A stretch of 64,000 nucleotides of DNA from Kondoa subrosea (Eukaryota): the NCBI GenBank assembly GCA_039545335.1, contig BCIN01000002.1, positions 3,143,564 to 3,207,563 on the forward strand, read 5' to 3'. Both the position numbers and the translations under genes were made by a program. The notes under the pieces were generated by a model. That model was given only the letters and a program-made list of their open reading frames with translations. It was not told where the DNA came from and made no database searches. Below are positions 61,221 to 61,604 of the stretch, piece by piece; the stretch's first letter is position 1, and the number at the start of each line of letters is the position of its first letter.

Positions 61221-61594
61221 TCAAAGCAAACTAGACACTTCTAGATCAGTGATGTCTCGCACATGTTTCGCATGGTTAAGGCATATCTTCCAGCGCTCGA
61301 GCAGTCTCCGGAGCATGACGATGAACAAGATCATGATTGTTTGCTCAGTAATGTGCTCCACCCTGAGGAAGTCCTTCCCAAGTCTCTTGTTCATTTCACT
61401 TCAAAACCAAAAAGAAACGGGGCAAAGCGTCCCAGCACATTGCTCCCGCGAGCAAAAAGCACTACATCGAGACCAAGCACAGGATCGAACTGTGGATCTT
61501 TCGCTGTATCCAGCAGGATAGGAGGCGAACGCCGCTATAGATTTGATCAGCGCTGGCGGGAAAAGGCACAGAAATCGGACGTACTACCGCTTGG
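61221..61594 (-). repeat. Right arm of the inverted duplication (tRNA gene plus about 250 bp of 3' flank)
   Basis: See 56750-57124. Confidence 0.96.
61454..61458 (-). terminator. Oligo-T (T5) putative Pol III terminator of the tRNA gene
   Basis: TTTTT on the minus strand, about 12 nt after the discriminator base. Confidence 0.55.
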
Positions 61595-61604
61595 CCACGT
61601 GGCC
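61470..61604 (-). tRNA. tRNA-Arg(CCU) with a 50-nt GT-AG intron in the D-loop (61584-61535) and a 13-nt intron at 37/38 (61518-61506)
   Basis: After removing both introns: GGCCACG TG GCCA AGCGGTA CGGC G TTCGC CT-CCT-AA GCGAA AGATC CACAG TTCGATC CTGTG CTTGGTC T. This is a full cloverleaf with one acceptor mismatch (6:67) and one D-stem mismatch (13:22). A-box TGGCCAAGCGG and B-box GTTCGATCC are present. Confidence 0.9.

Follow-up and report, generated by a model that had tools for sequence, protein, structure and literature searches.

The 64-kb window, the whole stretch of DNA analysed here, contains on its minus strand, at 61604-61470, a tRNA-like locus (copy 1 in what follows) which reading of the sequence divides into three exon pieces of 20, 16 and 36 nt. 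It sits between an F-box-like ORF (59517-60899, plus strand; profile match to PF12937) and a gene of the CFT1/CPSF1 type (plus strand; profile match to PF10433) that starts at about 62382. The locus is antisense to both, and lies some 780 nt from the start of CFT1. For the CFT1 piece, the nearest protein-atlas cluster is mostly composed of Basidiomycota, though the phylum is known for only eight of its members. The GC content is 41-47%. Protein searches with the open antisense frame that runs across the locus returned no relatives. A metagenome scan with a pattern describing the anticodon arm yielded a single locus, which by reading is an unrelated, intron-less and bacterial-looking tRNA-like fragment, while prokaryotic genome contigs searched with the exon-insert-exon pattern gave, as expected, no matches.

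The 5' exon (61585-61604, minus strand) corresponds to tRNA nt 1-21 according to reading, the ARAGORN cloverleaf and the Rfam alignment. It comprises the 5' strand of the acceptor stem, U8, the 5' strand of the D-stem and a D-loop with G18, G19 and A21. Between A21 and C22 the gene is interrupted by a 50-nt insert of spliceosomal type (61535-61584, minus strand), delimited by reading and by in-silico excision. The middle exon (61519-61534, minus strand; nt 22-37 by ARAGORN and Rfam) supplies the 3' strand of the D-stem, G26 and the 5' strand of the anticodon stem, with the anticodon CCT at 61522-61520 and A37 at 61519. At the canonical 37/38 site there follows a 13-nt intron, TCCTGCTGGATAC (61506-61518, minus strand), which ARAGORN finds when introns are allowed. 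The 3' exon (61470-61505, minus strand; nt 38-73 by reading, ARAGORN and Rfam) completes the gene with the 3' strand of the anticodon stem, the variable loop, the T arm, the 3' strand of the acceptor stem and a discriminator U. Eleven nucleotides past the discriminator, at 61454-61458 on the same strand, reading finds a T5 run, the likely Pol III terminator; five thymines presumably suffice for termination in this organism. The exact sequence, coordinates, strand and insert length are all as had been given in an earlier note made from the DNA alone.

That note had also described the internal promoter and terminator as intact, and on our own reading they are. The A box lies at approximately 61597-61587 and the B box at 61491-61481, each recognised by its consensus, and the spacing between the two is lengthened by 63 nt. 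Reading likewise finds the near-universal tRNA positions U8, A14, G18, G19, A21 and U33 to be intact in copy 1, along with G53, T54-C56, A58, C61 and the pairs G15-C48 and G26.A44. In the ARAGORN cloverleaf the acceptor stem has five Watson-Crick pairs, a G.U pair at 2:71 and a CxU mismatch at 6:67 (C6 at 61599, U67 at 61476); A13xC22 is also unpaired. Single mismatches do occur in working tRNAs. The AGG codon that such a tRNA would read is in ordinary use, accounting for 29 of the 232 Arg codons counted over 14 open frames that are 200 codons or longer. Taken as a predicted structure, the locus can be assigned with confidence to a nuclear-type tRNA-Arg(CCU) gene bearing both a D-loop insert and an ordinary 13-nt tRNA intron.

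In its native state the gene escapes the usual searches. ARAGORN called no tRNA anywhere in the raw window, whether or not introns were allowed. Once 61584-61535 had been excised, it reported a 73-base tRNA-Arg(cct) interrupted after position 37 by a 13-nt intron; with the intron option turned off there was no call even from the excised sequence. The cloverleaf had been said to appear only when the 50-nt insert and the 13-nt intron are both removed, and ARAGORN run before and after excision agrees. Applied to the whole window at gathering thresholds, Rfam gave no match. The raw locus scores 27.6 bits against RF00005, below the gathering score of 29, this being a score for unspliced DNA with two large inserts. 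The alignment extends from end to end of the locus (model positions 1-71), accommodates inserts of 52 and 15 nt, and has an E-value of 9e-4 in a 401-nt search and of 0.15 in the search of the whole window. The expectation that standard scanners would miss such a gene is thus borne out on raw DNA, by the lack of an ARAGORN call and by the sub-threshold Rfam score. No other broken tRNA was detected by Rfam in the 64-kb window at E<=5. Of 572 trial excisions, 90 gave an ARAGORN Arg(cct) prediction with the 13-nt intron; only three of these 90 are bounded by GT..AG, and a consensus donor is present only for 61584-61535. Since the cloverleaf permits many excisions, the GT-AG borders make 61584-61535 the best choice rather than a forced one.

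The insert has a GTACGT donor at 61584-61579 and a TAG acceptor at 61537-61535. A branch-like CTGAT lies at 61550-61546, its A at 61547 being 12 nt before the last base. A T4 run is found at 61564-61561, to be compared with only T5 in the gene's own terminator, and there is no T run of five or longer anywhere in the insert. The frequency with which such a combination arises by chance was estimated by requiring GTRNGT, YAG and CTRAY 8-30 nt before the acceptor, with 12 starts and 14 lengths allowed. In Markov-shuffled sequence the set of signals occurred at 132 of 319,600 positions (0.041%); of the 63,920 positions in the real window, 203 carried it on one strand and 240 on the other.

The length of the insert can be set against introns of the nearby tyrosine-phosphatase (PTP) gene (PF00102), where two introns, each of 51 nt, are anchored by protein motifs. 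Excision of 57749-57799 (GTGAGT...AAG, plus strand) fuses frames that match PF00102 positions 4-74 and 73-181, and excision of 58097-58147 (GTAGGT...TAG, plus strand) joins ...VHCS to AGVGRTG..., restoring HCSAGVGRTG. Other ORF-bridging candidates with consensus donors measure approximately 45-62 nt, in a heuristic list whose 165 entries include many alternative ends of one junction. The insert can therefore be said to resemble an ordinary mRNA intron in every signal and in length. The likeness to local mRNA introns, previously asserted from inspection, holds up in numbers: 50 nt against 51, with GTACGT, CTGAT and TAG in place and a chance frequency of 0.041%. Very probably, to judge from these signals, the insert is genuine intron sequence of the spliceosomal type that came to lie in a Pol III gene.

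The locus is not alone in the window. An inverted duplication of about 375 nt, detected by sequence comparison, has arms at 56750-57124 (plus strand) and 61221-61594 (minus strand) that are 95.2% identical. The arm of copy 1 begins inside the tRNA gene at nt 11, and the corresponding copy 2 (56750-56876, plus strand) is a 5'-truncated duplicate that begins at tRNA nt 11, continues through the 3' end and is devoid of the 5' acceptor strand. Copy 2 retains the same 50-nt insert, at 56760-56809, with two differences (a GTACGA donor and A31G); its tRNA part has a C25A change, and its 13-nt intron is identical to that of copy 1. ARAGORN finds no genes in copy 2, either raw or with the insert removed, and Rfam has no match to it at E<=5. 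The earlier note mentioned neither this truncated duplicate, nor the C6xU67 mismatch, nor the T4 run in the insert.

Since copy 2 carries the same insert, the insertion predates the duplication, and comparison of the two copies firmly places it at the DNA level, before the local inverted duplication of 375 nt. Between the copies, three of 125 columns differ within the tRNA part and 15 of 251 within the flank, the latter count leaving out 11 end-gap columns (Fisher p=0.20). Two of the three differences in the tRNA part leave copy 1 in the working state, with a G10-C25 pair and a GTACGT donor, and copy 1 has no other change in nt 11-73. This polarity of the differences is suggestive, although they are too few to count as evidence of selection. 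Copy 2 is situated on the same strand as PTP, about 630 nt ahead of that gene's likely start codon (57381), and by reading a further intron-like segment of 50 nt is present at 57285-57334, also upstream of that start.

Is the insert really of the spliceosomal type? Introns at non-canonical tRNA positions, the D-arm region included, occur in archaea and in the red alga Cyanidioschyzon, so that the insert might be an intron of the endonuclease type whose GT-AG likeness is incidental. We scanned the 135-nt precursor for bulge-helix-bulge (BHB) motifs, defined as two 3-nt bulges separated by a 4-bp helix and flanked by an outer helix of 2 bp or more. Eight BHB-like arrangements were present in the precursor, none of them bracketing the insert or restoring the D-arm on cutting. 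The earlier note had seen no such motif at the ends of the insert, and our scan concurs. The predicted precursor fold, of -38.5 kcal/mol, is no better than those of shuffled sequences (z = -0.35). With no BHB cuts that restore the D-arm, and a precursor that folds no better than shuffles, we consider the endonuclease-type explanation extremely unlikely. Two further ideas were tried and set aside. A stable fold of the precursor was rejected on the same z-score, and a group I or group II intron was rejected when a search of 61350-61750 with Rfam at E<=10 gave RF00005 only. Fifty nucleotides is, moreover, far too short for an intron of either group.

Scarcely more probable is that the insert is a copy of an introner, an artefact of assembly or a chance resemblance. 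Introners are DNA-level insertions that bring their own splice sites, and would in that respect account for an intron-shaped insert in a tRNA gene. Searching the insert against the 64-kb window with blastn-short, however, recovered just itself and copy 2, after which the best matches were of 10-13 nt, and at a likeness of at least 80% the sole other DNA-run contig matching the insert is again copy 2, in a set from which some records may have been filtered. Against an assembly artefact, contigs built independently from two DNA runs (of one sample, which is probably the source of the window) match 61501-61850 with no differences and confirm the sequence. A second DNA-run contig spans 61501-61594 with three differences and continues into the flank of copy 2. 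Among the DNA-run contigs, which as they probably derive from the same sample as the window are not independent of it, there was no joint skipping the insert and no third look-alike locus. As for chance, the signal set is found at only 0.04% of shuffled positions.

A further explanation accepts the insert as a true intron but places its splicing elsewhere: the tRNA-like sequence would belong to a Pol II transcript, and the intron would have been gained, and be spliced, there and not in a pre-tRNA. The host could, for example, be a transcript running divergently from the CFT1 promoter in the case of copy 1 and the 5' UTR of the tyrosine phosphatase in that of copy 2, and we think both this explanation and these particular hosts improbable. 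The positions of the copies are compatible with it. Copy 2 precedes the PTP start by about 630 nt on the same strand, where the intron-like segment at 57285-57334 suggests a long spliced leader, and copy 1 lies within about 780 nt of the CFT1 start on the opposite strand. Yet on the tRNA strand no open frame or family match joins the tRNA, and copy 1, the only full-length copy, has no downstream gene on its own strand. Extra steps would also be needed to explain why it is the truncated copy, and not the full one, that precedes a gene.

The principal question is whether the interrupted gene still works, and on this the same features must be read in two ways. The reading to which we lean by a small margin, and which we would put a little short of an even chance when its account of the origin of the intron is included, is that the gene is a young relic interrupted by a captured intron. 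The intron sequence may have entered by reverse splicing into RNA followed by reverse transcription and recombination; alternatively, an intron cDNA may have been captured at a DNA break. Reverse splicing of introns by post-splicing spliceosomes, into RNA or into single-stranded DNA, has been put forward as a proposal by Ares et al. 2024 (PMC11146597). The relic might still be transcribed by Pol III, with little or no mature tRNA being made, in which case AGG could be decoded by another Arg(CCU) gene or through wobble by tRNA-Arg(UCU).

The competing reading, a serious one to which we assign a somewhat lower probability, is that of a working tRNA-Arg(CCU), possibly the only one in the genome, that would need first the spliceosome and then the tRNA endonuclease. 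Its maturation would proceed in steps, each of which we hold possible, with the same reserve: Pol III would transcribe the whole 135-nt unit; the nuclear spliceosome, as with U6 of Schizosaccharomyces pombe, might excise the 50-nt D-loop intron by intron definition, for which a cap would not be needed; and the tRNA endonuclease and ligase would finally take out the 13-nt intron.

The absence of a BHB at the insert bears on both readings. It means that the normal tRNA pathway cannot repair the gene, as expected of a relic, and equally that no known route other than the spliceosome removes the insert. For a working gene speak the complete local splice signals and typical length of the insert, in a neighbourhood where the PTP introns are of 51 nt. 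The A and B boxes, the near-universal tRNA positions and the T5 terminator are all intact, and the insert is free of any T5 run. The full copy, moreover, has kept both the consensus GTACGT donor and the G10-C25 pair, which the truncated copy has lost (to GTACGA and A25), and is otherwise unchanged in nt 11-73. The intact positions and Pol III signals, the lack of T5 in the insert and the features kept by the full copy also sit awkwardly with a relic, as do the normal use of AGG, at 29 of 232 Arg codons, and the very precision of the intron-shaped insert, most easily explained if the RNA once met the spliceosome. An engineered yeast pre-tRNA has reportedly been spliced by the spliceosome. Pol III transcripts can be spliced, as that of the single U6 gene of Schizosaccharomyces pombe is (PMC5855946), and spliceosomal introns are described in U6, U1, U2, U5 and rRNA (PMC5855946) and in U3 across the Basidiomycota (PMC5832005).

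On the other side, the defects favour the relic and tell against a working gene: the C6xU67 mismatch in an acceptor stem that also has G2.U71, the unpaired A13xC22, an Rfam tRNA score of 27.6 against 29 bits, and a T4 run within the insert of a gene whose own terminator is only T5. The DNA has been rearranged recently, with the 3' 125 nt and 250 nt of flank copied in inverted, truncated form into a locus that is not callable as a tRNA, and conservation of the tRNA part does not significantly exceed that of the flank (3/125 differing columns against 15/251, p=0.20). In addition, no naturally occurring tRNA with a spliceosomal intron turned up in our literature search. The earlier note had inferred that maturation of this tRNA requires both splicing machineries. 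Of that interpretation the intron anatomy, the lack of a BHB and the intact Pol III signals stand, but with a mismatched acceptor stem, an Rfam score under the threshold and a truncated duplicate nearby, a young pseudogene is no less likely than a working gene. As it appears from sequence, then, the locus is an interesting candidate for a tRNA gene with a spliceosomal intron rather than a demonstrated case of one.

Eukaryotic introns are usually sorted by their host: those of mRNA, and of a few genes for snRNA, snoRNA and rRNA, fall to the spliceosome, those of tRNA to a protein endonuclease. A tRNA gene with both kinds of intron would cross this division. It would add the tRNA as a host to the spliceosomal introns of structured non-coding RNA genes. 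Were the RNA indeed spliced, the decoding of AGG by tRNA-Arg(CCU) would be tied to the machinery of pre-mRNA splicing. A Pol III pre-tRNA would be a natural substrate of the spliceosome, and this the first natural tRNA to depend on pre-mRNA splicing. There would also be a blind spot in tRNA finders, one that could explain some 'missing' isoacceptors, and tRNA genes split by GT-AG introns may have been overlooked in fungal, and perhaps algal, genomes. If, on the other hand, the gene is dead, it would offer a dated and precisely bounded insertion of a spliceosomal intron into a gene not transcribed by Pol II. Such a case is relevant to the question of how introns originate: through reverse splicing into abundant RNAs, or by capture at the DNA level.

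Among known systems, the one that shares the tRNA host is the engineered yeast pre-tRNA reported by Koehrer, Vogel and Domdey in the EMBO J in 1990. A pre-mRNA intron was reportedly put into the anticodon loop and was spliced by the spliceosome. It would thus be a laboratory proof of principle for maturation by two machines, though an artificial construct. The non-canonical tRNA introns of archaea and of Cyanidioschyzon merolae (PMC3978253) resemble the present insert in lying outside 37/38, in that several may occur in one gene and in being missed by tRNA finders; they differ in that the endonuclease cuts them at a BHB, in place of which we see GT..AG ends and a branch motif. That no mRNA-type intron is known in tRNAs, as the earlier note had it, accords with our literature search, in which no natural case came to light; related ones could be listed in the supplements of the U6 and U3 surveys. 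A 2023 review of tRNA processing, in the part of its text covered, mentions the spliceosome once, and then only in contrast to tRNA splicing (PMC10275265).

Closer parallels are provided by other structured RNAs. In 2017, of the small structured RNAs, U3 and U6 alone were listed as frequent hosts of introns, tRNA not being among them (PMC5832005). Spliceosomal introns of U3 are broadly present across the Basidiomycota, the phylum from which this window likely comes, and, like the insert described here, lie in a structured non-coding RNA and have in most species been detected by computation only; unlike it, they group at a small number of conserved sites and are shared by many species (PMC5832005). 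The U1, U2 and U5 snRNA genes of Rhodotorula hasegawae, and rRNA genes, also carry spliceosomal introns, and likewise attest to intron insertion into non-mRNA genes beyond the catalytic core or Pol II genes, albeit in host RNAs other than tRNA (PMC5855946). What determines the insertion of introns into non-coding RNAs has been called unclear (PMC5855946).

In fungal U6, finally, as many as four such introns may be found in a gene (PMC5855946; survey by Canzler et al. 2016), and the intron of the single S. pombe U6 gene is removed by the spliceosome (PMC5855946; Tani and Ohshima 1989). The splicing of S. pombe U6 is shown by experiment (PMC5855946), whereas the tRNA insert is known from sequence alone. 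The tRNA gene also requires a second, protein-only splicing step. U6, furthermore, lies at the spliceosome's catalytic centre, and this explains why introns hit it (PMC5855946); a tRNA has no such position. The likeness is that in both the gene of a small structured Pol III RNA with internal promoter elements is interrupted by a short intron whose donor, branch and acceptor are canonical (PMC5855946). The introns of U6 are, in addition, often species-specific, and reverse splicing with reverse transcription has been proposed as their origin (PMC5855946), as it may be for the intron of the putative young relic described here.

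The tRNA-Arg(CCU) candidate (61604-61470, -), from its nt 11 onwards, and its truncated copy (56750-56876, +) lie in the arms of an inverted repeat of some 375 nt, at 56750-57124 (+) and 61221-61594 (-), which are 95.2% identical. Between the arms is a 4.1-kb segment containing a tyrosine-phosphatase gene (PF00102) and an F-box-like ORF (59517-60899, +; PF12937), and this segment could undergo inversion mediated by the repeat. The right-hand outer breakpoint of the repeat is within the tRNA gene, at nt 10/11.

The 5' end of that gene carries a perfect 14-nt palindrome, TGGCCACGTGGCCA (61605-61592), which spans tRNA nt -1 to 13, includes CACGTG and straddles the duplication breakpoint at 61594/61595. 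Structure prediction folds the palindrome into a hairpin that competes with the acceptor stem of the tRNA.

The Rfam search of the whole window returned a box C/D snoRNA-like match to RF00160 (snoZ159) at 16626-16708 (+), which is sub-threshold: it scores 27.3 bits (E = 0.72), and the gathering score of the family is 39. The window contains only two N bases, at 3282 and 3644.

By eye, the 50 nt at 57285-57334 (+) resemble an intron (GTAAGT...TATAG). They lie shortly 5' of position 57381, where translation of the phosphatase probably starts. This intron-like segment suggests that the phosphatase gene has a spliced 5' leader, and the putative leader might extend back towards the truncated tRNA copy.
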